This document shows positions 16,859-42,649 of a stretch of 64,000 nucleotides of DNA, one piece after another. The notes below the pieces were generated by a model. That model had not been told where the DNA came from. It ran no database searches and saw nothing but the letters and a program-made list of their open reading frames with translations. Position 1 is the stretch's first letter, and every line of letters begins with the position of its first letter. A program made the translations under genes and the position numbers. The DNA comes from Sphingobacteriales bacterium (lineage in GTDB: Bacteria > Bacteroidota > Bacteroidia > Chitinophagales > CAIOSU01). The DNA is taken from positions 322,076 through 386,075 of the forward strand of contig JAIXOI010000023.1 in NCBI GenBank assembly GCA_027486795.1, written 5' to 3'.

Positions 16859-18040
16859 CTACCCCGAGTGCCCATAAATAGTAGGTTTCCGTTTGCCCAG
16901 GTGCGAGTAAATTGCATAGCGTATGGCATCGCAGGCGTGGTCGTTGTCCTTAACGGGGTCGTCGAGCAAGTTGCCTTCGGCATCGGTCTTCCAGGTGTAA
17001 TTATCCAGTTCATTCAGCACGTTCACACTATTTTGCACCACATGTATGCGGTACTCCTTCACCTTACCGATACCACTAAACACGCTTTTTTCGGCACCCT
17101 TTACGTGGTATCCGGCCTGTTGTATCTCCTTTATTTTTTCGGGGCTGGCACTATCCGCATATATGTTGTCGGTTTTGCTTATCTCTAGCCTATCCATTAA
17201 ATCAATCATTGCCGGTGTGGTAAGGCGGCGCTTGTAAAAAACCTCCTCTAGGTAAATGTCTTTTTCGTAGTAAGCCACCCGTACCATAGCGCAAGGGTTG
17301 TTGTAGCCAAAATCGAGGCCATACAGCGTTTCGGTGACGTTTTCGGGTATCCTGCTAATGATTTTGTAGTCGTAAATAATGGCATTGCTGTTTTCGCCCC
17401 ACTCGGCAAGCGCGTATATTTTGTAGTATTCGGGGTCAAGTTCCTTCATTTCGGCCAGCATTTCGCCAAATGCCGCACCAACTTTGGTGTTATCAGAATG
17501 AACAGTTATCAACTTAAAGGTATTTATGGGTTCGCGTGCATAAAACTGTTGGTAGACAAAATTCTTTTTGCTGATGGGGTTGAAGGTGCAGATAATTTGC
17601 AAATAAGTTTCCGTTTCGCCCCGAAGCCTTAAATCAAGCTGCCTGAAATCCCTTGCGCTCAACTCAGTGGCCTCCTCTACCCACATACCTGTAGGTTGTG
17701 CCAGACTTTTCAGTTTTTCGGGGTCGTCTACGCCTGTAGTTATAAGGGTATTGCCGTTTTTCAAACATTCAATTTCTAGCCTGCTTTCCGAAAATTTAAA
17801 CTCGTCTTGCCAGCCATGGAAATAAATCACATCCTTTAATTGCTGATACACGCTATTGCGAATGGTCCGGGCCACCTTGCGCACCACCACAAACCGATGG
17901 CCGGTTTCGGCCTTCATGCGGTAGAGTATTTTTTGGGCTGCGAAAAAACTTTTGCCACTACCCGCTCCGCCCATTAACATTAGGTAGCGGCTTTGATTGG
18001 TAAAAGCTGGGTGATATATGGTAAGAATATGATCGGTCAT
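16859..18040 (-). CDS. Phage terminase large subunit (PBSX/TIGR01547-like)
   Basis: Walker A motif MLMGGAGSGKSFFAAQK. C-terminal RNaseH-like nuclease motifs (GLDFGYNNP, IYADSASPEKIKEIQQAGYHVKGAEK, HACDAIRY). The start was trimmed to MTDHILTIY (ATG at 18040). Confidence 0.85.
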   Translation of the reverse strand: MTDHILTIYHPAFTNQSRYLMLMGGAGSGKSFFAAQKILYRMKAETGHRFVVVRKVARTIRNSVYQQLKDVIYFHGWQDEFKFSESRLEIECLKNGNTLITTGVDDPEKLKSLAQPTGMWVEEATELSARDFRQLDLRLRGETETYLQIICTFNPISKKNFVYQQFYAREPINTFKLITVHSDNTKVGAAFGEMLAEMKELDPEYYKIYALAEWGENSNAIIYDYKIISRIPENVTETLYGLDFGYNNPCAMVRVAYYEKDIYLEEVFYKRRLTTPAMIDLMDRLEISKTDNIYADSASPEKIKEIQQAGYHVKGAEKSVFSGIGKVKEYRIHVVQNSVNVLNELDNYTWKTDAEGNLLDDPVKDNDHACDAIRYAIYSHLGKRKPTIYGHSG

Positions 18041-18155
18041 GATAAGGCAAATTGGTTTTGGGGATAGGGACAATACACAGGCCGATGGCTGCAAAAACGC
18101 GCCAAAAGGTGAGTATGAAAATGTAAGATTTTTGGGTGCCTAAGCGGCTATTGCA

Positions 18156-18680
18156 TTATACCGAAGCCTTAGGCTCCATAACTGCTAAGTAAGGGAAAAT
18201 CCAGGTGGGGTCGGTGTCTTCGGCCTCAATACGGTACCATTTGCTGCCAAGTTTCAGAAAACCTTTCAGCACAAATATTTTCCCATTAAACAATTGCTCG
18301 TAATGGAATGGGCGGCCATTGAGTTTTACTTTGGTTTTGCCATCGGTTATGGGTATGCCCTTAAACTCGGCCATGGTAAAGCACTTGGCATCTTTTACCA
18401 CTTCGCTATCGCATACCAGCAGAAAGGTTTCCAGGTCTTCCACCTTCATGCCGGGCGTGGTGGTTACTATCAATTCTAGGCTAGCTACTTCTTCTTGTTT
18501 AGTTTTAGAAAGCTTAGCAACTGGCAGCTCGTTTGGTTCGTTTGTGCCTGCACCGCTGCCTTTAGCTGCCGCAGTATCCGTTTGGTTGGTTGCACCCGGC
18601 GCATCGGCGCCATTGCCACCAAAGTTGCACGCCGCAAAAGCCATAACCAGTATGACAAAAGTATAAAGTAGAGTTTTCAT
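18156..18680 (-). CDS. Hypothetical lipoprotein
   Basis: 174 aa. It has a signal peptide with a lipobox (MAFAACN), followed by a low-complexity G/A/T linker. Confidence 0.6.
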   Translation of the reverse strand: MKTLLYTFVILVMAFAACNFGGNGADAPGATNQTDTAAAKGSGAGTNEPNELPVAKLSKTKQEEVASLELIVTTTPGMKVEDLETFLLVCDSEVVKDAKCFTMAEFKGIPITDGKTKVKLNGRPFHYEQLFNGKIFVLKGFLKLGSKWYRIEAEDTDPTWIFPYLAVMEPKASV

Positions 18681-18720
18681 AGCAGGGTGGGTTCAAATCC
18701 AGAATTGTTGAGCAAATCGC

Positions 18721-19344
18721 TTATATCATTACAAATTTGCTTTCCTTAAATAGCTCTCGCAAATCGGGTGGCATACCGGTTATGCGGTCTTTAAAGTCGT
18801 TTAGCTCATCCAAGCTTTTGTTAGATAGTAGCTGCACCATCTCGTCCAAGGCCTTCATGCCCAAAATCAAAGGCATCAAGGTATAGGCCATTTTATCGCC
18901 GTTAAACGATGCCACCATTTGGTATTCGGTAAGCTCGGCGCGTGGCACACTGGTAACGGCGCATTGCCCTATCCAGCTATTCACGTCAAAGTCTTCGCGG
19001 GCGTAAAAATCATTGGCTCTGGCTTCTAAATCGGCATGGGTGCGCATATACTCCTGCCTATTGCGTTTCGATTCCGTGGAGAGACGCGCTTCCATTTCGG
19101 CATGGCACTCCATACAAATGGCGTACTCAAAAATAATGTCCTGCACGTTGTACTTCACATAGCGTTTCACAGCCTTCTCAACCATATACCAGGTTTCGGG
19201 CTGCAGCAAACCCTTCTCGCAAACGCTGCAGCGCTCAAATGGCTTGCCCGTGGCCTCCGAATAAAACTCTTTCGGTATTGCTACCAGCTTCGGGAACTCC
19301 TCTGCTTCTTGCTCTTCATCAAAATCTTCAAAATCATTATTCAT
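18721..19344 (-). CDS. Hypothetical protein with acidic N-terminus and CxxC...CxxC zinc-ribbon-like motif
   Basis: 207 aa. Motifs are CSVCEKG ... CMECHAEM. No family was recognised. Confidence 0.5.
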   Translation of the reverse strand: MNNDFEDFDEEQEAEEFPKLVAIPKEFYSEATGKPFERCSVCEKGLLQPETWYMVEKAVKRYVKYNVQDIIFEYAICMECHAEMEARLSTESKRNRQEYMRTHADLEARANDFYAREDFDVNSWIGQCAVTSVPRAELTEYQMVASFNGDKMAYTLMPLILGMKALDEMVQLLSNKSLDELNDFKDRITGMPPDLRELFKESKFVMI

Positions 19345-19423
19345 AGTTGCACGCTTATAGCATAAAAGTAAGGCAAAAGGGCGATTAGTAAAAACAATAA
19401 ACTAAAACCCGTTGTTTGCGTAT

Positions 19424-19876
19424 ATGTTAAAGACAAACCCGATGGCTATGGAAAACGTTTCGCGCATTGAAGTATTGCTTGAGTTTGGCCGCATTTGGCT
19501 ACGCGACGATGGCATTGTACAAGTAACCATTGACAACGGAGCCCATATTCGGTACCGCGAAGCCCAAAAATTGATGGAGACCATCAGTGGCCTCTCACGG
19601 TATACCAGCCGCCCTATAGTGGTTGACCTAACCAAAATAGCCAGTATTGAAACCAGCGCCAAGCTGCATTTCATCAGCACCCGAACCGACAACCATAACC
19701 TTTGCATGGCCATGATTATTGCCTCGCCATATGGCAAAATGGTGGCCAACCTATCACTTTTGTTCCAACATCCAGGTTGCCCAACTCGCTATTTCAATTC
19801 GCCAGAGGGCGCTTTGCATTGGAGCGGGCGTTTCCAACCGAGCCAAACAGAGGCTGTACATACCTTTGCAGCCTAA
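19424..19876 (+). CDS. STAS/SpoIIAA-like domain protein
   Basis: The track ORF starts at TTG 19412; the first ATG is at 19424. The pattern (IVQVTI..., RPIVVDLTKI..., FNSPEGALHW) resembles STAS/SEC14-like (DUF3478-type) proteins. Confidence 0.45.
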   Translation: MLKTNPMAMENVSRIEVLLEFGRIWLRDDGIVQVTIDNGAHIRYREAQKLMETISGLSRYTSRPIVVDLTKIASIETSAKLHFISTRTDNHNLCMAMIIASPYGKMVANLSLLFQHPGCPTRYFNSPEGALHWSGRFQPSQTEAVHTFAA

Positions 19877-19977
19877 ACTGTATAAAATACCCTACACTTT
19901 AACGAAAAACCCATGCCACCCGTTGGCATCTACTGCGAGCAAAGCTTGCATGTACGCCATTTGTATAGCGATATTTG

Positions 19978-20562
19978 ATGCAACTGAACCCCTATACAGT
20001 TATGTTGCGATTGATGAGTTTGGCTATTATCAGCACTTTGGCATTGCTTATTGCTTCGTTTGCGCCGCAAAACAAGCCAGCACCTAAAACCATACAAATT
20101 GGCAACCAGCTTTGGCTTGCCGAAAACGTAAACGTGCCTTACGCTGGCTCGTGGTGCTACAACAACGACCCCCTGAACTGCAAAAAATATGGCCGCTTGT
20201 ATAATTACGAGCTGGCCACGCTTGCCTGCTCGCGCATTGGCGAAGGCTGGCTCTTGCCCACTAACGCCGATTGGGAGACTATGGTTGCCACCCTGGGCAG
20301 CGTAAAACTTGCCGCACTAAAATTAAAACCTGGCGGCGATATTGGTTTTAATGCTGTGTACGGTGGTTTTAAAGTTGAAAACTCAGAAGAGTTTAAGGCC
20401 GAAGGCAGCGAAACCGCTTACTGGACCTCGAGCCCAATGAACCCAAAACAAGTGTTTATAAGAGAAATAAAGAGCTTTAGCCCCATGGTGATAGAAGGCT
20501 ATGCGGCAGTTGACCGTGGCTTGAGCTGTAGATGCGTTAAAGACCTGCCCAAAGGAGAATAA
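19978..20562 (+). CDS. FISUMP domain protein (Fibrobacter succinogenes major paralogous domain, TIGR02145), secreted
   Basis: It has a signal peptide. Motifs are IGNQLWLAENVNV, CKKYGRLYNY, GWLLPTNADWETM and YWTSS. Confidence 0.75.
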   Translation: MQLNPYTVMLRLMSLAIISTLALLIASFAPQNKPAPKTIQIGNQLWLAENVNVPYAGSWCYNNDPLNCKKYGRLYNYELATLACSRIGEGWLLPTNADWETMVATLGSVKLAALKLKPGGDIGFNAVYGGFKVENSEEFKAEGSETAYWTSSPMNPKQVFIREIKSFSPMVIEGYAAVDRGLSCRCVKDLPKGE

Positions 20563-20617: not shown

Positions 20618-20650
20618 ACCGGCGCGATTGGTCATCGCGCCGGTTTTTTT
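20618..20650 (+). terminator. Rho-independent terminator after the FISUMP gene
   Basis: The stem is an 11-bp GC-rich perfect pair, ACCGGCGCGAT (20618-20628) with ATCGCGCCGGT (20634-20644). The loop is 5 nt and the stem is followed by T7. The stop codon of the convergent holin gene lies in the T tract. Confidence 0.8.
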
Positions 20651-21116
20651 ATGGCTTGCTTTGCTCTTGCCTGCGGCGTTGCCGCCTCGTCATTTTAGAC
20701 AAATCCAAGTTACCGGTAACGGTAGTTGCTACTTTCTCAATAGAGCGGCCTATAACGTAACCACCAAGGCCCAGCTCAAGCAAGCCCCAAAAGCGCTCGG
20801 GCAACTCAATGGTGGGCATGTCAAACCAAAACCCCAACACGGGCTGTATAAAGTAATGAAACACGATAATAAACGCAAACGCCAACATGACCAAAGGGCG
20901 CCAATTCCGTTGCAGTTTGGTACCTTGCAGCTCGGTGTTTAGCACATCGCGCTGGTAGCTGGCCAGTTCGCCCAGGTTTTTCAATATCACCTCGCTTATC
21001 TCCTTTCGGGCGGCAAGGCGTTCGGGTTCGTTAGTGATGAGTTTATCTAGTGCCTTGCCAGTGGCATCTACCAATTCGGTAGCGGCCCCAGCTATCAGTT
21101 TGGGTATAATAGACAT
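20649..21116 (-). CDS. Phage holin, 3-TM type (PF11351 GTA_holin_3TM-like)
   Basis: 155 aa. An N-terminal amphipathic helix is followed by a WRP motif entering TM helices (NWRPLVMLAFAFIIVFHYFIQPVLGF). A GLGGYVIGRSIEKV motif and a basic C-terminus are present. Confidence 0.6.
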   Translation of the reverse strand: MSIIPKLIAGAATELVDATGKALDKLITNEPERLAARKEISEVILKNLGELASYQRDVLNTELQGTKLQRNWRPLVMLAFAFIIVFHYFIQPVLGFWFDMPTIELPERFWGLLELGLGGYVIGRSIEKVATTVTGNLDLSKMTRRQRRRQEQSKP

Positions 21117-21120
21117 GTTT

Positions 21121-21163
21121 GGTTATGGGTTGCGAGTTACGAGTTGCGGGTTGAGTTGCGGCG
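21121..21163. repeat. Heptamer tandem repeat array (RGTTRCG x ~6)
   Basis: The units read GGTTATG GGTTGCG AGTTACG AGTTGCG GGTTGAG TTGCGGC. The array lies immediately 5' of the holin ATG. It shares an identical 17-mer, GTTACGAGTTGCGGGTT (21136-21152), with 40956-40972. Confidence 0.85.
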
Positions 21164-21337
21164 GAGCTCTTTGATTTTGGTAATCAAAGTAATGACGCCA
21201 ATACCGATACCGATAATAAGCGCCAAGTATTGCAATACGGGGGTGGAAGTATCCATAAGCGTTTGCAGCGCCCCACCCACCGACGAAAACATCCCCCACC
21301 CCGGATGCTCCCGGAGAAAAATAGTGAGTTTGTGCAT
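21137..21337 (-). CDS. Small single-TM membrane protein (possible holin partner/lysis accessory)
   Basis: 66 aa with TM helix VLQYLALIIGIGIGVITLI. It starts 24 nt after the fiber gene stop. I preferred it over the overlapping 87-aa ORF 21123..21386. Confidence 0.45.
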   Translation of the reverse strand: MHKLTIFLREHPGWGMFSSVGGALQTLMDTSTPVLQYLALIIGIGIGVITLITKIKELRRNSTRNS

Positions 21338-21360
21338 TTGGATTTTTGGGGTTTAGGGGG

Positions 21361-24021
21361 TTATCCAGGATATAACTGTGTAACAACTAATGATGCACCT
21401 TTTTGAAAAACAACAAACCCTCCATTAATGCCATCTATCGGCTGATTTACAATTCCTGAAGCGAACTTAATTTGGGTGCTGGTTCCACTTAATGTTAATG
21501 TCTGGCCAGAAATTGGGCGAAGCGTAATGGTATTAGGCGAATGTGCGAGGCTGTGAATTTCTTCCAAGGTCTCAGTATTGCTTATCCAAATACTTCCAGA
21601 ATATGCGGCATCAAACGTTCCTAAATCAAGAACTCCACTGGAGTCAATCGATAAAGATGATTCTAAAGTGCTTTCATTGAAATTATAGAACCTTGAAATT
21701 TGATTTTCCGTGAGAAAAATGGTCTTTGATGGGGTCTTAAACAAACAATCGTAAAGCAAATTGGATTGATTTGACACATCCAGTTTGGTGTCCTCTCCAA
21801 TTATGATGCCGCCAATTGTTGAAGTATTGTTACTTGCTATCAACTTAGATCCGCTATCAATCTTATTTATCGTGATTCCAGCCCCCAAATACCCATCCAA
21901 ATCATAAGTAGAATAAAAGCTGGCGCGGTTGGAAGAGAATTGGCCATTGGTGTTGGAGAGGTTGACGGTGCTTTTGTCGATGTGGTTGTTGTCAATTTCG
22001 CTGCCCGAATCGTTGCTGGTAATGGTGGCTTCGCTAAAGACGTTTTGATTGCAATTGCCCATGCGGCGCTGCATGGTAATAGTACTGTTTTGCACCTTGT
22101 TTCGCGTGAACTCTCCCGTGCTATCGGTCAAGTTAAGGGCGGTAGCAGATAGGGTATTACCCAAAAATTGCCCACCTGTATAATTATTAAGGGTTAGCTC
22201 GCTTTGGTTGTTAATCTGGTTGTTTTGAAAAAAAACGTTGGTATCATTGGCATGCAATTGCGAGTTGGCAATAACATTATTTGCAAATTGCCCTTGCGTG
22301 CGCTGCAAGTCAATTTCGCTGCTGCCTGAAATGTGGTTATTTGAAAAAATATAACCTGCGGCGGCCTCGCTTATATCTAATACCGTTCCCGAAATCTGAT
22401 TTTCAGAAAGCTGAAACGAAGCATTGGTGGCAGTTACATCGGTGGTGGTCAAGTTGTTGTTGTTCATAGTAACCGTAGCGCCACTAAACAGGTATTCGCC
22501 ATCGGTAAGGTTGTTTTGCGCCATGCTATTCAGGGTGGCATTGGACAAAAACAGATTGACCCCGCTGAAATGATTCATGACCAGGTTGTTGCAAACCACA
22601 TTTTTCCCAACCAAATTAGAGGCAACGATACTATTGGCAGCCATTTCGCCGCTTGCGAGGTGCAAATCGAAACCGGATAAAGAAATGGCGTTGCCCTGCA
22701 ACGAGCAGTTGCCCGTGGCAACAACCTTCACAAAGCTTTGATTACCAATGTTGTTCTCGGCTATACTATCGGTTTCGGTGAGGCTGCAAACCATAAAAGT
22801 GCGGCCCGAAATAGTATTGCTGGCAATAGTGCCGCCATTGGGGTAGGCAATGAAAACGCTATCGGTAACCTTAGTGCCAGTAACCGCATCGTACGCCCAA
22901 GGGAATGCTTGATATGGGTTGATGCCTACCAAATCAATCAGCTCGGGCTGGCAACTCACCATATTGCCTTTGCTATCAGCCATTTCAGCTATCCAATCGT
23001 CGGCAAAGCGGTACTTAACTTTAAACCAATGCGCGCCCTTGTTGGTGCCCATGGCTAGTGAACCCGTGCTAACCCCAATGCCAGTGGCAGCAACGGTTAT
23101 GGCACCGCCATTTAAAACCGCACCGCGGCCATTGGCATCGGTGAGGTACACAAATGAGCCAATATTGATGGCTCCAAAGCCGTGCACGGGCGTGCCATCA
23201 TTAATGGCATCGGAAACCAAGGCTGCCATATTGATGAGGTTGGAAGCGTAACCAATGGGCGATGGCAGCAATTGCTCGCCATTAACAGTAACCGCATCAA
23301 TGCTACCGGCGGTACCCGATGTAAGCTGCAGATAACCATGTGCAGGCAAAGCTTGGGTATAATCGCCCTCGATGCTGAATGCCGATACCGAGGTGGCCGT
23401 AAGAATCATACCCCTATCGGTAACCAAATACCTTTGCCCTGGCACCAAAGCAGCGGTGGCAATCATTTCAGAAAGCTCTGCATAGGTGGCTGCTACTTGC
23501 GGCATGGTAGGTTGGGCGGCTTGCCTTACCCAATTTGCGCCAGAAAAGTAGTAGGTATGCCTGTCGGCCAGGTTGAATATCTGATAGCCCGATTGCGGGG
23601 TAACGGCCCGCCACTCAAATACCGATTGGCCTTGGCTATTGGTTCTAAAATACTCGGCAATTTCGCCCACGGCCACATCGCCCCAAGCGGGATGCACGGT
23701 TGTGTCGGGTTCCGGAAAAACCACCTCGCCCGAAGTATCCATACTGGTATCTATAGAAGCATCCATTGACGTATCAATCGCCGTAGAACCGATGCTGGTG
23801 CTGCCAAAAAGGATATATCTATCGCCTTGCTGCAGCGTTCGTGGCGGAAAAGTGGCATCGGCAAAATCCAGCACAGGCCGCTGCCAGTAGGTATCGTACC
23901 ATTGAATGTCGCCCAATGGGTTTTTGGATAAAAGCGTATCGTTTTCTGCCAAGCTAAAATCGCGCGGCGGGTGCAGTTCGCTATTTTCTAGCTCAGCGTG
24001 AACATTTGAGAAGGTTGGCAT
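21361..24021 (-). CDS. Tail fiber / tailspike-like protein with a long beta-solenoid repeat region
   Basis: 886 aa. Residues ~420-760 consist of ~19-22 aa degenerate repeats rich in N/S/T (..F.NN.I..S.L.L.N..G.), typical of parallel beta-helix receptor-binding proteins. It lies just upstream of the lysis genes. Confidence 0.6.
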   Translation of the reverse strand: MPTFSNVHAELENSELHPPRDFSLAENDTLLSKNPLGDIQWYDTYWQRPVLDFADATFPPRTLQQGDRYILFGSTSIGSTAIDTSMDASIDTSMDTSGEVVFPEPDTTVHPAWGDVAVGEIAEYFRTNSQGQSVFEWRAVTPQSGYQIFNLADRHTYYFSGANWVRQAAQPTMPQVAATYAELSEMIATAALVPGQRYLVTDRGMILTATSVSAFSIEGDYTQALPAHGYLQLTSGTAGSIDAVTVNGEQLLPSPIGYASNLINMAALVSDAINDGTPVHGFGAINIGSFVYLTDANGRGAVLNGGAITVAATGIGVSTGSLAMGTNKGAHWFKVKYRFADDWIAEMADSKGNMVSCQPELIDLVGINPYQAFPWAYDAVTGTKVTDSVFIAYPNGGTIASNTISGRTFMVCSLTETDSIAENNIGNQSFVKVVATGNCSLQGNAISLSGFDLHLASGEMAANSIVASNLVGKNVVCNNLVMNHFSGVNLFLSNATLNSMAQNNLTDGEYLFSGATVTMNNNNLTTTDVTATNASFQLSENQISGTVLDISEAAAGYIFSNNHISGSSEIDLQRTQGQFANNVIANSQLHANDTNVFFQNNQINNQSELTLNNYTGGQFLGNTLSATALNLTDSTGEFTRNKVQNSTITMQRRMGNCNQNVFSEATITSNDSGSEIDNNHIDKSTVNLSNTNGQFSSNRASFYSTYDLDGYLGAGITINKIDSGSKLIASNNTSTIGGIIIGEDTKLDVSNQSNLLYDCLFKTPSKTIFLTENQISRFYNFNESTLESSLSIDSSGVLDLGTFDAAYSGSIWISNTETLEEIHSLAHSPNTITLRPISGQTLTLSGTSTQIKFASGIVNQPIDGINGGFVVFQKGASLVVTQLYPG

Positions 24022-24154: not shown

Positions 24155-24631
24155 TTAATAAACATACGGTAAGCTGCTATGCGAGCTGTCGTTGGGGCAG
24201 GTGGGGTAATCGGGGAAGGAGGTGCGGTTGCTTTTGATATAATCCGTCATTTCGGTAGCCAACAGCTCGGCATCACTCAACATTTTGTTGCGCAGCATGG
24301 CAAAGTCGGTATTGTTTACCGGCAAGTGGTAGTCAATGCTCGGGGTTTGGATGCCGTTGGAGGTTATCTCGGCCTTTATGAGCGGCAATGCCTCGTACAA
24401 CACAAAACGAGCCAGGGCATCTTTGAGATAATCGTTAACGAGCGTTTGGTTAAGGCCCGTAAAGGTTTGCGCCACCGATTCGGCCATGAGGGTATTGTAT
24501 AGCGCAATGCCCAACAAGGGCTTGATGTATTTAAGCGAAGCGATAGGAATGCTATCGGCTACGAGGGTCGTGTCGAGGTTTTTACCAGGCATAGCAAGGG
24601 CTATCACCTCGGCAGGGGTGAGTAGGGACAT
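24155..24631 (-). CDS. Hypothetical phage structural protein (possible head-tail adaptor)
   Basis: 158 aa. It is encoded directly after the portal gene. No motif was recognised and the function is guessed from position only. Confidence 0.3.
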   Translation of the reverse strand: MSLLTPAEVIALAMPGKNLDTTLVADSIPIASLKYIKPLLGIALYNTLMAESVAQTFTGLNQTLVNDYLKDALARFVLYEALPLIKAEITSNGIQTPSIDYHLPVNNTDFAMLRNKMLSDAELLATEMTDYIKSNRTSFPDYPTCPNDSSHSSLPYVY

Positions 24632-35293: not shown

Positions 35294-35494
35294 TTATTTT
35301 GCAGCGTAGCCTGCAATTTTCATGGTGTCTTTTAAGTAGTAATACTCTTGCCTGGCAATAACCTTAAAGCGAAAGCCACGGCCGCGCAAGGCATTCAATA
35401 GGTCCAGAAAATCATCAATCTCGGCCTCCAAGTGCAGCAGCATTTGTTCTTGCCCACGGGTTATGTGCAGGTATTCGTTGAGTTTAGTTTCCAT
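35294..35494 (-). CDS. Small hypothetical protein
   Basis: The track start at 35509 is TTG; the first ATG (METKLNEY) is at 35494, giving 66 aa. Confidence 0.4.
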   Translation of the reverse strand: METKLNEYLHITRGQEQMLLHLEAEIDDFLDLLNALRGRGFRFKVIARQEYYYLKDTMKIAGYAAK

Positions 35495-35505: not shown

Positions 35506-37128
35506 TCAATTGCGCTGCAAAATCATATCGTTGGCATATTCCAGTTCAACCCTAAGGCGCAGTATATTTTTAACTGGGTCGAGTATTTCAAACTCCCCAT
35601 CGCGGAGCAACACGGGCAGCAGCTTATCGCCTTGCTGCACATACACGGCAGGGCTGGTAAGCAATTCCTGCAGCCACACCATTTCGTCGGGCCGCAATGC
35701 ATCGCTGGAGCACGATAGCCGCACAGCTCCTTGCTTATGCAACACCTGCCTACCCCGGTTGGTAGCATTAAACCAAGTAGGCTTCAGTTTTTCAAAACTG
35801 CTGCTTTCGGTCTTTATGCTGCTTTTTTCGGCACCGGCAAACGTGTAGCTATCCATGCCGCCCAAGCGGTTCAAGAAATGCACGCGGGTAGCGTGGCAGT
35901 TGGATTTGGTTAGGCGATAGCGCTTGGTTTCACTAAAAACTCGAATGCCCGAAACGTTGACATCATCAAAATAAACCGTTAGCCCCGACCACGCACCAGC
36001 CTTATCAACCACCAATCTTGCGGCAGTATCTTGCCCAGTAACTACTTGCGTGGTCATTAGCACCCATTGATTTAAAGTGCCTGCATTCCAAGTGTTAGTG
36101 TACGTTACGCTGGCATCGGTTAATCCCTCCACCCCAATGCGCATGCTGGGCGGTTGGATGGTCGATTTAGTGCCCGTGCAATACACCCAGCACGAGAAAG
36201 TGTAGGTAGTATATTGCGCCAAGGGCAACACGGATGCTGATTTCCAGCCATTGTGAAAACTACCACTGCTTGGCCCATCGGAAAAATTGACTTTCAACGA
36301 TTTCGTTCCCGTATGGGCAAACGCATTGCTTTGCTGGCCCGAGGTGAAGCCTGGCCCAGCCAAAAACCCATTGATACTGGCTTCCATAGTGCCGCCATCC
36401 ATATCCAAAAAGAAATTCTCATTACCGCTAGAGGTAATAGTCACATCATAGTGGCTGTGGGCCTCGGTAACGGTTAAGGCTTGCACCAAATTCAAACTGT
36501 TCGGGCCAACGGCTATGTCAAAGCGCTTTTTGCCCACTATTCCTGATGATAAGGCAATATTGATAATAGTTGGTACTGGATTGCCCGGCTCATAGGTTTT
36601 AATGTTAGCCACTAGGCTAGTTGTCGTATCTGCAACTATGGCTAGTGTTTCGTATTCGTCAATCTGTACTTCTTTTTCGGGCATGGAGCTGGTAAGAAAG
36701 CGCTTAGCGCCGTTGCCATCCATAATATAAGGCGACAAGCTGGGCTCAACATCTGGCTGCAAACCGCCGTTAATAGCAGTTATAGGCGTGCTGATTTGAA
36801 ACGCTGTTTGGTCGTCGTTCAAAAACACACAAAACACCTTTACACTAGCATCCGGGGCTTCGAGCGCACCAAATTCGATGGGCTGGTGCAGGTTATAGGC
36901 CAGTTTGTCTTGCAATACTTGCTCTAGCCTAAAGGTAAACGTGTCCGCACTTCCAAAATCTATTTGCTGGCTCCATTGGGCAATAAGCGTGGTGGTATCG
37001 GCATGATACAGCGCTATACCCACCGTTTGCGAAGCGCCGATGGGCGAAACGCGTATTTTATACTCAATGGGGTTGTAGGCCGCCACTATGCTAGCCGGTT
37101 GGCCAACTATTGATAAGGTAATAGCCAT
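35506..37128 (-). CDS. Phage structural protein with a central jelly-roll/CBM-like insert
   Basis: 540 aa. Residues ~235-390 resemble CBM4/9/22-type lectin modules (GNENFFLDMDGG..., HTGTKSLKV, YTFSCWVY, VYFDDVNV). Confidence 0.45.
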   Translation of the reverse strand: MAITLSIVGQPASIVAAYNPIEYKIRVSPIGASQTVGIALYHADTTTLIAQWSQQIDFGSADTFTFRLEQVLQDKLAYNLHQPIEFGALEAPDASVKVFCVFLNDDQTAFQISTPITAINGGLQPDVEPSLSPYIMDGNGAKRFLTSSMPEKEVQIDEYETLAIVADTTTSLVANIKTYEPGNPVPTIINIALSSGIVGKKRFDIAVGPNSLNLVQALTVTEAHSHYDVTITSSGNENFFLDMDGGTMEASINGFLAGPGFTSGQQSNAFAHTGTKSLKVNFSDGPSSGSFHNGWKSASVLPLAQYTTYTFSCWVYCTGTKSTIQPPSMRIGVEGLTDASVTYTNTWNAGTLNQWVLMTTQVVTGQDTAARLVVDKAGAWSGLTVYFDDVNVSGIRVFSETKRYRLTKSNCHATRVHFLNRLGGMDSYTFAGAEKSSIKTESSSFEKLKPTWFNATNRGRQVLHKQGAVRLSCSSDALRPDEMVWLQELLTSPAVYVQQGDKLLPVLLRDGEFEILDPVKNILRLRVELEYANDMILQRN

Positions 37129-37134: not shown

Positions 37135-37437
37135 TTATAATTCTTGATCCAAAAAATCGTTCAAATCTCGCTGCACAGCCGCTTCAATCATTCGGTTGAT
37201 GGCTGCTTCCTCGCTGCTGATGGCAGCATCTAAAAACCCGCTACGGTCGTTCACTTTGCGACCATAATCTTCCATACGGGTGCTCAGCTGGTATTCATTA
37301 GGTGCACTGTTCAATTCGGTTTGCACCGAGCCGCTCAGCTTGCCCGTTTTGTTGTGTTGGCGCAGATCCAATTCGCGTTTTATGGCCGCATCCAATCGGG
37401 CGGCGGCTTCTTGTAGGGCTAGTTCTAGATTTTTCAT
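37135..37437 (-). CDS. Hypothetical phage protein
   Basis: 100 aa. It has a 4-bp overlap with the upstream gene. Confidence 0.45.
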   Translation of the reverse strand: MKNLELALQEAAARLDAAIKRELDLRQHNKTGKLSGSVQTELNSAPNEYQLSTRMEDYGRKVNDRSGFLDAAISSEEAAINRMIEAAVQRDLNDFLDQEL

Positions 37438-37907
37438 AGCGTTGGGTAGTTAAAAGTTCCTGCTAGGCAATCGCCTTGGCAGCGTATTTGCAGGGTGTAG
37501 GTGAGTTCAATCAATCGGTCTTGATGTTTTCGGTACTGCCAGTTGCCGACCACTTTCTCCTCGTTTTCTATTTTCCAAGGGAAGCCATTGGCTTTGTAGC
37601 GGGCTTTAAATTCAAACAGAAATTGCTCGGCCAATACTTCCAGGTCGCGCTGCTTGGTTTGGCTAGCAGTGGCCATCTCTTCGGGCCTTGGGTACCTATC
37701 GAAAAACGACAATTTGAGCTGATACACCCGTTGTCGGGTTTTCATGTTCATGCCCTCAATGCGCACATTACGGTCAATAAATAGCAGCGGATAGTCCTTG
37801 TTGCGTTGGTTGTTAATTTCAAAAGGCTCGCCATACATCAGGCCATTGAGCCCTGCTTGTGCCTGGGCAATGGTTTCTATTTCGCTTATCAGTTGGGTTA
37901 TAGTCAT
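37434..37907 (-). CDS. Hypothetical phage protein
   Basis: 157 aa with operon-like packing. No motif was recognised. Confidence 0.45.
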   Translation of the reverse strand: MTITQLISEIETIAQAQAGLNGLMYGEPFEINNQRNKDYPLLFIDRNVRIEGMNMKTRQRVYQLKLSFFDRYPRPEEMATASQTKQRDLEVLAEQFLFEFKARYKANGFPWKIENEEKVVGNWQYRKHQDRLIELTYTLQIRCQGDCLAGTFNYPTL

Positions 37908-37969: not shown

Positions 37970-38728
37970 TTAGCTATTCAGGTCAAAAAGGTCGGGCACT
38001 TCTACTATGCCGTAATTGCTAAAGTGAACCAACGGCTGCCCGGGTTGCCAAGCATTAAACTGCTCAACCTTTTGGGCAATGTTGCCAAAGTTTCGGGCGG
38101 CGCTGCTATTGCGCAGCTTTCGGCCAATATCCTTTCGAACGTAGCTAAAGTGGTGCATCATCAGTTCGTGCTCGGCAAACAAATAGCACCGTTCAATAGG
38201 CTTTACGCCCCTAGTTGGGTCCACCAGCACCGGGAATTTGCCCCCTGCCTTCATTCCTGTCTTTAGCCTGCCCATAAAAGGCACCCAGTAGTTTTCCATG
38301 GGCTGCAACCGATAGGTAGGCTGCTTAAAGTAGGTGTACAGCCTGCAGGCAGATGCATCGTATTCGCCCAGCTCCAATTTGGCCTTAGCGGCAGCAAAGG
38401 CCTGGGTGTCGTAATATTCATCGTTGTCTAAAAACAAATAGTGGGTGCAGCCCAACTCCATTGCCCAATCGAGGCCAATCTGTCTTTTCATGCGCTCGTT
38501 ATTGCTCGGGGTGAGGTTAAGGTCCGGCTCGTACTTGCGCAATCGTACCTTCTGCCAGCGTTGTTTAATGGCAGCTAGCGTGGTCAATAATTCGGGGTAG
38601 TACTCTCCAATGTTCGATTGCAATTGGTACACAATCAGCACCTCGTCCACCTGGTCAACTATCTGGGCAATGCTACCTTCCAATAGTTCTTCCCCATCAA
38701 AAGTGTTGTATATAGCGGCTAAAGACAT
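37970..38728 (-). CDS. Glycosyltransferase, GT-A fold (family 2-like)
   Basis: 252 aa. The N-terminus has AAIYNTFDGEELLEGSI. A DxD-type motif (FLDNDEYY) is present. Confidence 0.55.
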   Translation of the reverse strand: MSLAAIYNTFDGEELLEGSIAQIVDQVDEVLIVYQLQSNIGEYYPELLTTLAAIKQRWQKVRLRKYEPDLNLTPSNNERMKRQIGLDWAMELGCTHYLFLDNDEYYDTQAFAAAKAKLELGEYDASACRLYTYFKQPTYRLQPMENYWVPFMGRLKTGMKAGGKFPVLVDPTRGVKPIERCYLFAEHELMMHHFSYVRKDIGRKLRNSSAARNFGNIAQKVEQFNAWQPGQPLVHFSNYGIVEVPDLFDLNS

Positions 38729-38733: not shown

Positions 38734-38768
38734 GGTTACGGGTTATCAGTTACGGGATTCGAGTTGGT
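38734..38768. repeat. Heptamer tandem repeat array (GGTTACG GGTTATC AGTTACG GGATTCG AGTTGGT)
   Basis: The array begins 6 nt 5' of the GT ATG at 38728. It overlaps the last codons of the upstream GT gene. It belongs to the same RGTTRCG family as 21121-21163 and 40955-40979. Confidence 0.75.
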
Positions 38769-39666
38769 AATAATTTGAAGTCAGTGCTTCTAGCCGGTTT
38801 TGCCAAGTGAGTTGGCTATGGGCGAGGTCGCAGCCGTTGGCAGCTATGCGCATGCGTGCCATATCGTTGCGCAAGTAATACCTAATCATTTCCAATAGCT
38901 CCGGTATGCTTCTAAAAGTATCAAGGTGTGTTCCTACCCTAAAATCGTCTTCTATGCTTTGGTAGTGATGCGATAGGCAAAGTGCACCCGCACCAAGAAT
39001 ATTGAACATGCGGCCGCTGCTGTACCTTGGGTAATCGAAATGACTGAGGTTAATGGCCATTTTGGCGCCGCGGTATATGTCGGCTTCGCGCGCTGGTTTT
39101 TTGTTCAGGTTTTCGGTGGCATAGGGCCAACCTGTGCCACATACGGCAAACGAAAAGTCGCGCTGTTGGTGCAAGGTTTTCACCAACTCCATCCGGTAGC
39201 TGCTTAGCGGAAAAGTGCTGCCATAGTTATTCGCCATAAAAACCACATCCGCCAAGTGTTCGGCTGGGCCGCTGGGTACAAATATTTCGTCCTCAAAACC
39301 CATGGGCAAATAGCCCGCATTCAAGCCTTGCTTGCGAAGTACTGCGACATCGTACTCGTTGGTAAACAAGGTAATATCAAAGTGCGGCGCCATATCCAAG
39401 TACCATTTCGGTGTCGGGAAACGCACATCGCCGGTCCAGTTTACCTTGTATCCACTCAACCCTTTTAAGGTCTCGATGCGAATAATACCGGGTGTTTGCA
39501 ATTGAAAAAAGCACAAATCGAATTGCTGTTGGTGTGCCAGTTTTTGCAAGGTGGCATTTACGTTAGGGTCTTTGCGCCAATTTACTTCCGTGAGTTGCCC
39601 AAGGCCCGCAAGTGCTTTACGCAGTGCATGCTGGTGGTCACCCAGGCTTACATATAGCACGTTCAT
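38746..39666 (-). CDS. Glycosyltransferase, CgeB/Glyco_trans_1_2-like (GT-B C-terminal domain)
   Basis: 306 aa. The C-terminal half (YRGAKMAINLSH...SGRMFNILGAGALCLSHH...FRSIPELLEMIRYYLRNDMARMRIAANG) matches the PF13524-type pattern. Confidence 0.6.
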   Translation of the reverse strand: MNVLYVSLGDHQHALRKALAGLGQLTEVNWRKDPNVNATLQKLAHQQQFDLCFFQLQTPGIIRIETLKGLSGYKVNWTGDVRFPTPKWYLDMAPHFDITLFTNEYDVAVLRKQGLNAGYLPMGFEDEIFVPSGPAEHLADVVFMANNYGSTFPLSSYRMELVKTLHQQRDFSFAVCGTGWPYATENLNKKPAREADIYRGAKMAINLSHFDYPRYSSGRMFNILGAGALCLSHHYQSIEDDFRVGTHLDTFRSIPELLEMIRYYLRNDMARMRIAANGCDLAHSQLTWQNRLEALTSNYYQLESRN

Positions 39667-40277
39667 AGCAGTGTAGGGTTAATGGTTAAATAAGGTCCAG
39701 GAACGGTTTCGTGGCGGCTATAGCTGCGCAAGTTGGTAAGATGCAAATGGCAAGCCTTAATGGTTTTTGATGGGTTGGTAACCCTCATACCCGCTTCGGT
39801 CAGTTCATATGCCAAGCGGTTGTCACACCCAGGCTTACCTGGGCAATAGTTACCTTCAATACCCCTCAACTTAGGCCAGTATATCCAAGCATCTTGGCTG
39901 CAGTCTTTATTGTAAAACTTCAGACCTCTTGCTTTAGTCACATCCCAGCGCGTTAGGGCATAGCAATCGTTAGGTTTCAGGTATTGCGCCTCCGCCAGCG
40001 ACTCGTCAAAGTAAATGTCGGTATTGGCCAGTATAACAATGCCTTGCAACTCGTTGCCAAGTTTTATCAAGTCTTTAAACAAAGCCCTGCGCCCTACTTG
40101 CCTCACCTTTATTTTCGGGTGGTAGGGTATATCTGGCTCGCCATCTACCACAAGCCACCCTTTTTTAATCAATGGGTGCTCTAGGTTGCGGGCCAAGCAA
40201 TACAAAAGCTCAGCCCTGCGCCCGGCATCGGGCTCGTGGTACCAACTGGTAATAAGTGTAAACATGGGGTTGGGCAA
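39663..40277 (-). CDS. Putative glycosyltransferase-like protein (GT-A-like; weak call)
   Basis: 204 aa. Motifs are ITSWYHEP, ILANTDIYFDESL (DxD-like), SQDAWIY and PGCDNRLAYEL. Confidence 0.35.
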   Translation of the reverse strand: MPNPMFTLITSWYHEPDAGRRAELLYCLARNLEHPLIKKGWLVVDGEPDIPYHPKIKVRQVGRRALFKDLIKLGNELQGIVILANTDIYFDESLAEAQYLKPNDCYALTRWDVTKARGLKFYNKDCSQDAWIYWPKLRGIEGNYCPGKPGCDNRLAYELTEAGMRVTNPSKTIKACHLHLTNLRSYSRHETVPGPYLTINPTLL

Positions 40278-40748
40278 TTACTTGTTGTGCAATAGGTTCA
40301 CCAATTCCCTGAAGCGCATTAGGCGCTCTTCATCGGTGGTAAATTGGTCTCTGATAAATAGATCGCGCAAAGCTTTTAGCTGAACACGCTCTGGCTCGGG
40401 CAATTGGCCGTTTTTTAACCGGTCTTTGGCCACTTCAAGGACCTGCTGCTTATGCTCTTTTAAATGGGCCAATTGCTTTTGCCGCAGCGCCTGTTGTTGC
40501 TTGAGGTCGTTCTCAAATTCGGTAAGGTACACTTGCTGCGAGCGCCATTGCTCGGTATACACCATCAGTTCCTCACGCTTTTTGCTGGCTTGCTCTCGGT
40601 AGTTATAGTTCTTCGCTGGGTCGGTTTCTTGCTGGGCCAGTGTATCATATAGCTCAATGCCTTCGGCAATCAGTTTTATGCGTTGGTCTAGCAGAGCTAT
40701 TTTGGCCCGTATGTCGTCCAGCGCTTGGGGTAGTTCAAGTTTTTGCAT
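40278..40748 (-). CDS. Coiled-coil hypothetical protein
   Basis: 156 aa, rich in Q/E/K/L with heptad character. Confidence 0.45.
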   Translation of the reverse strand: MQKLELPQALDDIRAKIALLDQRIKLIAEGIELYDTLAQQETDPAKNYNYREQASKKREELMVYTEQWRSQQVYLTEFENDLKQQQALRQKQLAHLKEHKQQVLEVAKDRLKNGQLPEPERVQLKALRDLFIRDQFTTDEERLMRFRELVNLLHNK

Positions 40749-40755
40749 GGTGCGT

Positions 40756-40938: not shown

Positions 40939-40954
40939 GTTAAAAATGGTTTTA

Positions 40955-40979: not shown

Positions 40980-41027
40980 TTAATTCAATAGTCATAAGGG
41001 CAAGTTTTTAACTCGCAACCTCAATTT

Positions 41028-41813
41028 TTAAAGGTCTTTGCTGTATTTCCAGGTAAAACGGTGGTGCTCGCATAGCACGCCCATGTGCACCAGGGGCTTA
41101 ATGCCTATAAGGTTGCTATCCATGTGCCAGAAGCTATCGCTAAAGGCCATGGGGTTGCTGGCATCAACCCTAAACTGCAGGCGCTGCATCAATCGCCGAC
41201 TAAATAGCGAGCACCCAATTGAAGGGGCGAAATACCGTTTCACGCGCCCATCAAATGCCGCAATACTCTCGTAGGGTGCCATTACTTTGTTGGCGCACCA
41301 ACCTTGGTAATTAATAACCGATAGCTGCACCCCTAGCGTGGTATGGGCCCCTTGTTTCAAAAAATAGGGTACGTTAATGTTTTCGGCCCTATAACTCAGC
41401 AATAGCTCAATAATATTCAATGGCGGAAAATTATCGCACTCCAAACTGAAGTAGTAATCATAATCGTTTTGCAGAAAATGCTCGCGTAGCATATTCTGGC
41501 TTTCGGCAATAAATGCTGGGGCACGCATACCCTTTGGTGGGCAATAGCCGCACTTATACCCCCACGACCATACTTCCTGGTGGAAACCCTCGTCGGGGCT
41601 ATTGTCCACCAGAAAGATGTCATAAGCCGGGTAAGTAAGCCCGGAAATGTGCTGCAGCCAATCGCGGAGAATGTACTCCTTGTTTCGGGAAATAGGAGCG
41701 GCCAACAGCACACGAGGAAGGGTAGTATTAAAATGTGAGACATGAAATGGGAAACTTGAAACCGCGTTGGCTTGGTTGTATGTTGTTTGAGGGTTTGCTA
41801 TTTCGCATTTCAT
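41028..41813 (-). CDS. Glycosyltransferase-like protein, GT-A fold
   Basis: 261 aa. VLLAAPISRNKEYILRDWLQHISGLTYPAYDIFLVDNSPDEG resembles a GT2 N-terminal nucleotide-sugar-binding region. Confidence 0.45.
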   Translation of the reverse strand: MKCEIANPQTTYNQANAVSSFPFHVSHFNTTLPRVLLAAPISRNKEYILRDWLQHISGLTYPAYDIFLVDNSPDEGFHQEVWSWGYKCGYCPPKGMRAPAFIAESQNMLREHFLQNDYDYYFSLECDNFPPLNIIELLLSYRAENINVPYFLKQGAHTTLGVQLSVINYQGWCANKVMAPYESIAAFDGRVKRYFAPSIGCSLFSRRLMQRLQFRVDASNPMAFSDSFWHMDSNLIGIKPLVHMGVLCEHHRFTWKYSKDL

Positions 41814-41825
41814 ATCTCACACTTT

Positions 41826-42116
41826 TTATTTTCTCCGTTTTGCCTTTGCCTCATCGGCATATACTTTTTGCAAGCGCTCATTAAAGCACTGCTCTTCGCG
41901 TTGCCGCGTGAGGAACTGGAAAACGGTATGTACGTTCAGGTTTTTAATATGCGCTAGCTGCCATAACTGGCCGGCAGCGGCAGTATACAGTAGGTTGTAC
42001 CACCCAAATTGATTTAGTGCACCAACTCCGGCTTTGCTGGCCTGGGCATTACTTTCGCCTCTAAATAGCGGTTGATACGTTTTAACCAAGTACTCGCGGA
42101 ACGAGCCAAAAAAAAA
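41826..42116 (-). CDS. -1 frame extension ORF (downstream half of a candidate frameshifted gene)
   Basis: The track ORF 41826..42089 starts at TTG. The same frame is open upstream through the T9 run (A9 on the plus strand, 42108-42116). It overlaps the 3' end of 42014..42649 in the -1 frame. Confidence 0.45.
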   Translation of the reverse strand, partial: FFFGSFREYLVKTYQPLFRGESNAQASKAGVGALNQFGWYNLLYTAAAGQLWQLAHIKNLNVHTVFQFLTRQREEQCFNERLQKVYADEAKAKRRK

Positions 42117-42649
42117 TAGGCATTCATGGCCTGGGTAAGCGGCAACCTGCCCATGGTAGCAGCCCGCTCGCTTATATCAATATCATCTAGGGTTTCGCCT
42201 TCTTTCAAAAACAGGGTAGCCAATACATAAGGTATCATTTCATACTTGCCGTGCATCAACTGCTCAATTTGCAGGGCTTCCAGAGCTTGCCCAAAGGTAG
42301 CTTTGCCCATGGGAGCCAGTTTGTTCAACAATTGCAAATCGGCAGGGGCATTGTAAAACGCGCCTTCGTGCTCAAAAGCTTTCAACTCCATGGGCTCTGG
42401 AAGCACGGTTAGTTTATCGGCCACGGCAAATATGCCCAGCACCAAATCGGGGTCTTTGTCTTTTACGGTATCCCAACCGGTCCAAAACTTTACAACCGCC
42501 TCTACATATTCTGGATAACGGGTAAATAAATCGAGTCCAGTAATTTTCGCCTTATCATCAAAACGCTTATCTAACTCTGGCTGAAGGGTCTCTAATAGCT
42601 TGCAATAATCAATGAATTGGGCAATGGATATTTTAGTTACGTCTATCAT
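42014..42649 (-). CDS. Hypothetical phage protein, first gene of the cluster (0-frame product; possible chaperone-like G/GT pair)
   Basis: 211 aa. It contains the sense-strand run TAT TTT TTT TTG at codons 178-181. Confidence 0.55.
   Translation of the reverse strand: MIDVTKISIAQFIDYCKLLETLQPELDKRFDDKAKITGLDLFTRYPEYVEAVVKFWTGWDTVKDKDPDLVLGIFAVADKLTVLPEPMELKAFEHEGAFYNAPADLQLLNKLAPMGKATFGQALEALQIEQLMHGKYEMIPYVLATLFLKEGETLDDIDISERAATMGRLPLTQAMNAYFFLARSASTWLKRINRYLEAKVMPRPAKPELVH

Follow-up and report, generated by a model that had tools for sequence, protein, structure and literature searches.

Gene transfer agents (GTAs) and related domesticated phage particles are known from a handful of lineages. 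The RcGTA-type agents of Rhodobacter capsulatus, Caulobacter and Dinoroseobacter are encoded by a head-tail-packaging cluster without integration, replication and immunity genes, which is chromosomally fixed, vertically inherited, under purifying selection and host-like in composition, and whose lysin is located outside the cluster. The RcGTA cluster has a size of about 15 kb and includes a divergent small terminase subunit (TerS). PBSX, a chromosomally fixed defective prophage of Bacillus subtilis, has a large terminase subunit (TerL) of the Terminase_3 ("PBSX family") type, retains TerS and a repressor/regulatory module, and has a contractile tail. FpGTA (Faecalibacterium), Dd1, VSH-1, VTA and BaGTA represent independent domestications of unrelated phages outside the Alphaproteobacteria, conserved across a clade. 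A list of GTA hosts from 2026 comprises the Alphaproteobacteria, Desulfovibrio, Brachyspira, Methanococcus, Bacillus (PBSX) and Faecalibacterium, and includes no Bacteroidota; the Faecalibacterium element, which is split into operons of 10.5 kb and 5.5 kb, is called one of very few GTAs outside the Alphaproteobacteria, and PBSX packages host fragments of 13.4 kb (PMC12946183).

Here we analyze a block of phage particle genes that occupies positions 16859–42649 (25.8 kb) of a 64-kb stretch of DNA, referred to as the window, from the Sphingobacteriales bacterium assembly GCA_027486795.1. A first-pass annotation had proposed that the block is a GTA-like or domesticated-particle candidate and had noted that no such system is known to have been characterised in the Bacteroidota; a search of the full-text literature on GTAs with Bacteroidota, Bacteroidetes, Chitinophaga- or Flavobacteri- likewise found none described. 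Conservation, selection, co-divergence with the host flank and host-like composition favor this proposal, and the block is probably a domesticated, selectively maintained and vertically inherited phage-particle locus of uncultured freshwater Chitinophagales. A candidate of this kind would add a major environmental phylum to the known range of such systems and, for abundant freshwater bacteria, would suggest gene flow by way of capsids or competition by way of particles. As an independent domestication event, it would also show by comparison which genes are always lost, which are retained and in what way TerS and the tape measure are altered.

The block resembles the RcGTA-type systems in gene content, chromosomal fixation, vertical inheritance, purifying selection, composition and the absence of a lysin from the cluster, and its holin falls into a Pfam family named after the RcGTA holin. 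In contrast to RcGTA, it is larger (25.8 kb), has TerL as last gene, tail genes before head genes, a glycosyltransferase (GT) module and opposite-strand cargo genes, and no CtrA/GafA context in the window and no TerS were detected. Sequence relationship to RcGTA was not detected beyond generic phage folds, and the ancestral phage lineage is a different one. With PBSX it shares the TerL type and the chromosomally fixed state, but it contains no recognized regulator, TerS, sheath or tube, and phylum and gene order differ. Like FpGTA, Dd1, VSH-1, VTA and BaGTA, the block would be an independent domestication outside the Alphaproteobacteria; for those systems, none of which is from the Bacteroidota, host-DNA packaging has been shown experimentally, whereas for the block it is predicted from genes.

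Gene content of the phage particle cluster

Nearly all open reading frames (ORFs) of the block are on the minus strand, with a gene coding for a protein of 211 amino acids (aa) at the start of the series and TerL at its end. To assign coding functions, ORFs of the cluster and of the window flanks were compared with Pfam, PHROGs and NCBIfam, the last of which added nothing to the assignments. Profile matches were found for the TerL, portal, ClpP-type protease, capsid, tape-measure-like, large tail and holin proteins that the first-pass annotation had named, in the case of the capsid protein by PHROGs and synteny. The virion and lysis genes are as follows (E-values in brackets):

16859–18040, minus strand: TerL (PBSX/Terminase_3 type), last cluster gene (Terminase_3, 6.7e-39; Terminase_3C, 2.4e-13)
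20649–21116, minus strand: holin with three transmembrane segments (PF11351, 1.4e-11; phrog_3427, 1.2e-26)
21361–24021, minus strand: fibre, 886 aa, N-terminal anchor conserved and rest hypervariable
24155–24631, minus strand: DUF6712 protein beside the portal, by inference a candidate connector (DUF6712, 9.1e-20; syntenic in phages)
24673–25941, minus strand: portal (phrog_11226, 1.3e-9)
27458–28021, minus strand: virion structural protein, 187 aa (phrog_19979, 3.2e-5; syntenic in phage contigs)
28111–29064, minus strand: 317-aa protein of capsid type, putative major capsid protein (phrog_1623, 3.7e-13, a "virion structural protein" family)
29177–30235, minus strand: ClpP-type prohead protease with coiled-coil, scaffold-like C-terminus (CLP_protease, 1.3e-25)
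31367–32653, minus strand: tape-measure-like protein, 428 aa (phrog_3336, 8.6e-10)
32658–35285, minus strand: large tail protein, 875 aa (phrog_38559, 2.8e-11; syntenic in phage contigs at 30% identity)
35506–37128, minus strand: tail or receptor-binding protein, 540 aa (weak CBM_4_9 match, 5.7e-4)

TerL contains the Walker A/B and nuclease Asp motifs and has no TerS alongside, and the Ser and His motifs of the protease (GIAASAAT, IHNP) are visible in its sequence. Relatives of the portal have a weak precomputed Phage_portal match, and the portal itself matches TIGR01540 only at an E-value of 0.013, far below the cutoff of that family. The capsid-type gene directly follows the protease in all relatives, and among the distant relatives of its product one has a weak match to a gene annotated as "PBSX protein XkdG". 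PDB profile searches with alignments of the capsid-type protein, the 211-aa protein and a 207-aa protein of the cluster gave no match. The name of PF11351, "GTA_holin", was rejected as evidence of a GTA, since the same protein also fits phrog_3427, a family of phage holins in general.

No integrase, recombinase, repressor or replication domains were found in the ORFs of the 64-kb window, of which the large ones were scanned directly and a few in the flanks were read from homologue annotation in related contigs. Neither TerS nor an endolysin was found in the window. Two distant relatives have TerS candidates (L015, 141 aa; L021, 137 aa), but homologues of these are absent from the window and from all other loci of its type. 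The window contains no tRNA gene, and there are no direct repeats of ≥12 nt between the two cluster borders. The absences reported in the first-pass annotation thus held up in profile searches as well as in the searches for tRNAs and border repeats. What is present is a phage head-tail-packaging cluster without genes for integration, replication or lysogeny control, and what would mark a temperate prophage (recombinase, att repeats, tRNA, replication/immunity module, TerS) was not found in the 64 kb.

Conservation, co-divergence and selection

TerL, with its stop at 16859, and ruvA, with its start at 16657, are 201 bp apart, and 300 bp (42650–42949) lie between the first cluster gene and an aldose-epimerase gene, exactly as annotated before. 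Both flanks consist of host genes. The left one contains ruvA and the type IX secretion (T9SS) gene sprA, and the right one aldose 1-epimerase, DUF4836, SOD, RmlD, YbaB, DLH, a ParE toxin-antitoxin pair, NUDIX, monooxygenase, LspA, DksA, IleRS, MMPL, PorZ and RecO.

Contigs that encode the identical capsid protein number 16 among the metagenomes, and their gene arrangement is the same throughout. The identical epimerase is encoded on 19 contigs, all of which carry the cluster wherever their extent permits checking, so that no empty site was seen among them. The Logan runs SRR30952xxx, SRR35819076 and SRR16126xxx contain this population. A genome scan with TerL recovered two near-identical metagenome-assembled genomes (MAGs) with the ruvA/sprA flank, CAMDKI01 (labelled Chitinophaga pinensis, 99% identity) and an uncultured bin (97%), as well as a Chitinophagales MAG at 74%. 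Homologue searches yielded about 40 relatives of the capsid protein (41–93% identity) and 27 of the 211-aa protein, and the TerL homologues form a series from 73 to 96% followed by a gap down to ≤52%. A metagenome scan with the aldose epimerase did not reach close relatives and returned only distant homologues (≤47%), none of them beside cluster genes.

The whole cluster is present and colinear (27.2 kb) on a single 159-kb contig of GCA_022076565.1, whose right flank matches that of the window from the epimerase through IleRS and in which TerL is followed by genes for a 1148-aa collagen-repeat protein, Vsr, AsnRS and sigma-54, with no ruvA. In SRR13704944 the cluster is also colinear and the right flank is as in GCA_022076565.1. 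GCA_027483645.1/SRR16126832 again has a colinear cluster, with a collagen-like gene, PEMT and EPSP synthase after TerL; here the epimerase adjoins the 211-aa gene, but other host genes lie beyond it. Linkage of the epimerase to the cluster persists even where the genes beyond it differ (L019). The aldose-epimerase junction and the gene order are common to all four genomes, and across at least four compared genomes the orthologous ORFs are near-identical in length and all intact. On the epimerase side, the cluster thus occupies the same locus in these genomes; adjacency to ruvA was seen only in the near-identical MAGs and was rejected as conserved context. The intergenic region at the conserved junction is itself conserved:

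42650–42949, no strand assigned: conserved divergent intergenic region, presumed control region (82% mean column identity in four genomes)

This conservation far exceeds that of synonymous sites, which are saturated in the same four genomes. Within the region, a conserved hairpin, TCGGTTGATAATTGAACCGA, immediately precedes the 211-aa gene, and the region may be a shared control region of the epimerase and the cluster. A promoter and terminator scan gave nothing above chance, and Rfam had no match in the window.

Synonymous divergence between the compared genomes has reached saturation both in the cluster and in host genes (pS 0.6–0.8), and the ranges of nonsynonymous divergence (dN) overlap. 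Concatenated protein p-distances were 0.223/0.176/0.204 for nine cluster genes, a set that leaves out two hypervariable tail proteins, and 0.232/0.190/0.220 for 11 host flank genes, with the same rank order in both. Among four taxa, the cluster distance is approximately three times the epimerase distance for every pair, and the same genome is the outlier in both. Comparison of the window with the near-identical MAGs L008/L009 gave synonymous divergence (dS) values of 0.08–0.50 for the cluster, which bracket the sprA value of 0.17. The dN/dS ratios in this comparison were 0.038 for TerL, 0.030 for the portal, 0.046 for the holin and 0.18 for the fibre, and those of a 207-aa and a 174-aa protein of the cluster were 0.07–0.14. 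The G + C content of the cluster is 47.7%, compared with 46.4% and 44.0% in the flanks, and its tetranucleotide composition is also close to that of the flanks. The first-pass annotation had called for tests of both selection and composition, and the outcomes, dN/dS well below 1 in within-species pairs (0.03–0.18) and little compositional deviation, are in line with its proposal. Co-divergence, selection and composition together are the apparent signature of a chromosomal gene set and not of a prophage. In this small sample with one conserved flank, the locus is conserved and its divergence tracks that of the host, and the structural genes combine low dN/dS with intact ORFs and a conserved frameshift signal (see below). 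Because portal, protease, capsid and TerL are strongly constrained, DNA packaging is likely part of the selected function, which groups the locus with GTAs and PBSX-like elements and not with tailocins, which have tail genes only.

The fibre and two large tail proteins are 37–69% identical between genomes, compared with about 80% for the remaining cluster. In the fibre, which has no significant family match, the first 60 aa are 81–85% identical between genomes and the remainder 13–68%; in the 540-aa protein, which is 38–52% identical overall, the C-terminal 120 aa form an anchor conserved at 58–78%, and the rest is hypervariable. Fast divergence with conserved anchor ends is the pattern of receptor-binding proteins under what would be diversifying pressure. 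The conserved anchor ends on three fast-evolving proteins therefore suggest that the predicted particles still engage variable cell surfaces.

Candidate frameshift site in the first cluster gene

The first cluster gene overlaps a second ORF in the −1 frame:

42014–42649, minus strand: first cluster gene, 211 aa (27 homologues at 49–98% identity)
41826–42089, minus strand: −1-frame extension of the 211-aa gene, 87-aa ORF overlapping its 3' end

A T9 slippery run is located at about 42108–42116 (within 41826–42130 on the minus strand), and the predicted fusion product would have about 273 aa. The run, TATTTTTTTTT(A/G), i.e., TAT TTT TTT TTR, is identical in six lineages, in which both frames and their −1 relationship are conserved. 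L110 has an in-frame fusion of the two parts, and protein P0199 (273 aa) from one assembly is exactly the fusion sequence. These observations point to a candidate programmed −1 ribosomal frameshift at T9. Programmed −1 frameshifting is a device of phage tail-assembly chaperones and some capsid genes. That the site is conserved also speaks for translation and function of the genes, and the site and the hypervariable fibres would offer concrete experimental handles. An AlphaFold2 model of the 211-aa protein (pLDDT 69) had no PDB fold match better than an E-value of 0.66.

Phage relatives and origin of the cluster

Scans of IMG/VR for close relatives of TerL and the capsid protein found nothing, and an alignment-based IMG/VR scan recovered viral contigs with 46–48% capsid identity, the longer of which have sizes of about 38–47 kb. 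INPHARED contained no match for the capsid protein of the window or that of a viral contig; its portal match was only 26% identical and came from Streptomyces phages. The IMG/VR contigs share the order GT-like, 157-aa, tail, tape measure, protease, capsid, 187-aa, portal, DUF6712 and fibre genes. With UViG_3300011339_000704 and UViG_3300028044_000015, the cluster thus has the module order in common, and protein identities are 46–48% for the capsid, 41% for the protease, 38% for the portal, 38% for the 157-aa protein (in unchanged position), 44–46% for the GT-like proteins and 36% for TerL. The gene order of UViG_3300011339_000704 (43.8 kb) was read over most of the contig. It starts with a fragment of a methylase/helicase gene, continues with primase-DnaB helicase and ParB-like genes, and is followed by TerS, TerL, the 211-aa homologue, GT genes, structural genes, DUF5675, nucleotide kinase and exonuclease. 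Read from TerS onward, this order places lysis and then replication genes after the fibre. This phage thus differs from the cluster in having TerS, the primase-DnaB helicase, ParB-like/methylase genes, the nucleotide kinase and the exonuclease, whereas the 3TM-type holin and the 207-aa and 174-aa genes are absent from the viral contigs. The 211-aa homologue follows TerL directly in complete phage relatives, as seen in UViG L118. A circular phage genome opened between TerL and the 211-aa gene, with the stretch from the lysis genes to TerS deleted, yields exactly the gene order of the window. Shared order and protein identities thus place the predicted ancestor of the cluster in the phage lineage of the ~38–47-kb IMG/VR contigs. 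By the same comparison, head, tail, fibre, glycosyltransferase, holin and TerL genes were evidently kept and TerS, primase-helicase, exonuclease and ParB/methylase genes evidently lost.

The tape-measure-like protein has 428 aa in the window and 404–459 aa in the other clusters of the same type, compared with 947–1028 aa in the distant chromosomal relatives SFW35 (GCA_033762815.1) and L021; in L111, a phage-like contig, its length is 1014 aa. BLASTP against the 1028-aa SFW35 protein showed that both ends are kept (C-terminus 58% identical) and about 600 internal residues are gone. This internal deletion predicts a much shorter tail.

All boundaries that are visible in SFW35, L021 and L110 show host genes without an integrase, and host-type genes (aroC, DUF1295, thioredoxin, AhpC, Rrf2) are interspersed in these distant relatives. 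On contig JANRLF010000001.1 of GCA_033762815.1 (at about 207–246 kb; L015/L020), the homologous genes form two divergent blocks, with chorismate synthase, DUF1295 and thioredoxin genes between or inside them; its TerL is 47% identical and accompanied by a TerS candidate. Either this locus was acquired separately, or it is the same domesticated element in rearranged form.

Possible function and alternative explanations

Going one step further, one may tentatively consider the locus the first GTA of the Bacteroidota, a possible product of the independent domestication of an undescribed phage lineage, with glycosylated short-tailed particles, host DNA packaged without TerS and fast-evolving fibres that set the recipient range. 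For the domesticated-particle interpretation as a whole, a mechanism can be proposed in which a host-controlled signal would activate the minus-strand genes as a long series, starting in the conserved region that they share with the aldose-epimerase gene, and procapsids would be assembled from the portal, the protease-scaffold and the capsid protein. TerL, without a cognate sequence-specific small subunit, would fill the heads with available DNA, mostly that of the host. Tails with the shortened tape measure and the fast-evolving receptor-binding proteins would then be attached, and the holin together with a lysin encoded elsewhere would release the particles from a lysing subpopulation. The particles would deliver DNA to related cells, as GTAs do, or act as PBSX-type killer particles.

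In the latter case the same domesticated particle would be selected for killing or competition, as a PBSX-type defective phage or headed bacteriocin in which packaged DNA is incidental. The PBSX/Terminase_3 type of TerL and the XkdG match of the distant capsid relative agree with this, and three receptor-binding-type proteins that diverge fast while their anchors are kept are typical of strain-specific killing devices. However, fast-evolving fibres are equally expected of a GTA, and a tailocin-like device would not need DNA packaging, whereas portal, protease, capsid and TerL are under purifying selection. The sequence agrees with either function, and selection for killing is considered somewhat less likely than not. 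The first-pass annotation had left a decayed prophage remnant as the alternative, that is, an ordinary defective ("grounded") prophage without organism-level function, kept by chance or for one or two useful genes. TerS, endolysin, replication genes and integrase are indeed absent, unrelated genes have been inserted (the DUF4143 ATPase here, a HicA toxin module in L016), and the TerL-side flank is rearranged. Nevertheless, neutral decay over a saturated synonymous distance would destroy most ORFs and is thus incompatible with a cluster of more than 25 ORFs that is intact and colinear in at least four divergent genomes. The low dN/dS values, host-like divergence and the conserved recoding signal also speak against decay, which makes a remnant improbable.

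A still-mobile temperate phage or satellite might integrate beside the epimerase by means of a recombinase encoded elsewhere, or obtain TerS and replication functions from a helper phage. The identical epimerase-proximal position in four genomes with a variable other flank would be explained in this way, as would the mosaic identities of TerL and capsid and the varying position and orientation of TerS-TerL in L021, L110 and SFW35. Yet the distances of cluster and host genes agree in both magnitude and rank order, an agreement that would be lost under horizontal spread. The junction is conserved and continuous, and the 64 kb contain neither att repeats nor an integrase. Nor was an empty site found among contigs with the identical epimerase, or a close relative in IMG/VR or INPHARED. 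Taken together, the matching distances, the conserved junction and the lack of att, integrase and empty site are incompatible with a mobile prophage or satellite, which we regard as highly improbable. Of the outcomes that the first-pass annotation had listed as speaking against its proposal, none was seen: besides the missing integrase and att sites, there is neither presence/absence polymorphism, wherever contigs are long enough for a check, nor a disrupted gene in relatives, and the closest complete phages share 46–48% identity in the capsid.

The interpretation as a domesticated, vertically inherited locus also faces several opposing points. The capsid label is based on PHROGs and synteny only, the AlphaFold2 model of the protein (pLDDT 42) leaves its fold unconfirmed, and no tail tube or sheath was recognized in the cluster. 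The TerL-side junction varies, with ruvA/sprA in the window and a collagen-like gene followed by AsnRS or PEMT elsewhere. In SFW35 and L110 the capsid is 70–77% identical, yet TerL is only 44–47% identical in SFW35, L021 and L110, and these three keep a TerS candidate, with TerS-TerL in other positions or orientations. Such phage-like mosaicism of TerL and capsid calls for caution regarding a single ancient domestication, and there may have been more than one acquisition. All relatives are MAGs or metagenome contigs, with about four genomes of the window type compared in full and one flank conserved, and no related genome without the cluster was among them to date its gain. Therefore TerS, endolysin and regulators could lie elsewhere or be truly missing, and if the latter is true, working particles might not be made.

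Gene order and remaining genes of the cluster

In the direction of transcription, the 211-aa gene is followed by a GT-like block (261, 156, ~200, 306 and 252 aa), small proteins of 157, 100 and 66 aa, the 540-aa and 875-aa tail proteins, the 428-aa tape-measure-like protein, the ClpP-type protease, the 317-aa capsid-type protein and the 187-aa virion protein. These precede the AAA_14/DUF4143 ATPase, portal, DUF6712 protein, 886-aa fibre, a 66-aa gene and the holin, and the series ends with the opposite-strand Fib_succ_major and DUF7793 genes, the 207-aa CxxC protein, the 174-aa lipoprotein and TerL. The genes not listed above are:

18156–18680, minus strand: lipoprotein, 174 aa, signal peptide and lipobox visible (49–63% identity in L010, L013 and L016)
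18721–19344, minus strand: CxxC...CxxC protein, 207 aa, specific to window-type clusters (alignment; no family or PDB match)
19412–20562, plus strand: two cargo genes, DUF7793 and Fib_succ_major lipoprotein (Pfam, 3.5e-16 and 6e-19)
21137–21337, minus strand: small gene of 66 aa between fibre and holin, called in all related contigs
26141–27295, minus strand: AAA_14/DUF4143 ATPase, lineage-specific insertion (DUF4143, 1.6e-48)
30343–30873, plus strand: lipoprotein-like gene, 176 aa, same position in all close contigs
30922–31197, minus strand: small ORF, 91 aa, called in Logan contigs (53% identity in SFW35)
35294–35494, minus strand: small conserved protein, 66 aa, called in Logan contigs (77–92% identity)
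37135–37437, minus strand: conserved virion-module protein, 100 aa (69–76% identity in relatives)
37434–37907, minus strand: conserved virion-module protein, 157 aa (85–92% identity in window-type clusters)
37970–38728, minus strand: GT2-like protein, 252 aa, weak assignment, start of the conserved tail block (Glycos_transf_2, E 0.19)
38746–39666, minus strand: glycosyltransferase, 306 aa (Glyco_trans_1_2, 2e-21)
39663–40277, minus strand: protein of about 200 aa, no Pfam or PHROG match (conserved at 64–75%)
40278–40748, minus strand: coiled-coil protein, 156 aa, no family match (49–80% identity in relatives)
41028–41813, minus strand: GT2-like protein, 261 aa, weak assignment (Glyco_tranf_2_4, E 0.021)

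Four putative glycosyltransferases had been annotated in the first pass, of which the 306-aa protein is the only solid one. The 261-aa and 252-aa proteins match GT2 families weakly, and the assignment of the ~200-aa protein (39663–40277) is unsupported. The 261-aa protein is 66–83% identical in relatives and 46% in a phage contig, and the 252-aa protein has homologues at 44–55% in SFW35, L110 and a phage contig. An 87-aa ORF at 21123–21386 was rejected as lying in the wrong frame because its dN/dS was above 1 (1.7–2.8); the real small gene at this position is 21137–21337.

The DUF7793 and Fib_succ_major genes are conserved in both genomes that show this part (GCA_022076565.1 and GCA_027483645.1), with identities of 53–82% in L013 and L016, and the 176-aa lipoprotein-like gene has a weak homologue at the same place in SFW35. 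Since the two former genes are conserved in window-type clusters and the third in close contigs, these opposite-strand genes appear to be long-standing passengers and not recent insertions. The DUF4143 ATPase gene, located between the 187-aa virion gene and the portal, is present in the window, L008 and L013 and absent in L016, SFW35 and the viral contigs, and thus apparently stands outside the ancestral module. A paralogue with 32% identity is encoded 30 kb away at 56699–57844 of the window. In L016 (GCA_027483645.1), a 126-aa gene and a HicA-toxin gene are inserted at 8586–9202 between the homologues of the 207-aa and 174-aa genes.

Flanking regions

In four relatives, TerL is followed by a gene for a collagen-repeat/PKD protein of 1136–1715 aa, whose N-terminal 250 aa are about 47% identical between them:

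L010, 5967–9407: collagen-repeat/PKD gene
L013, 11976–15422: collagen-repeat/PKD gene
L015, 13970–19117: collagen-repeat/PKD gene
L016, 11441–14851: collagen-repeat/PKD gene

The window has ruvA after TerL and lacks this gene, suggesting that in this species the TerL end has been rearranged or has undergone a deletion.

The ParE pair of the right flank is missing from the syntenic flank of GCA_022076565.1 and SRR13704944. Outside the cluster, three islets of low G + C content (33–46%) are located at 5789–6304, 1810–2414 and 49363–49919, and they contain an ORF6N/Rha-like DNA-binding protein, a DUF433/PIN-like pair and the ParE toxin pair.

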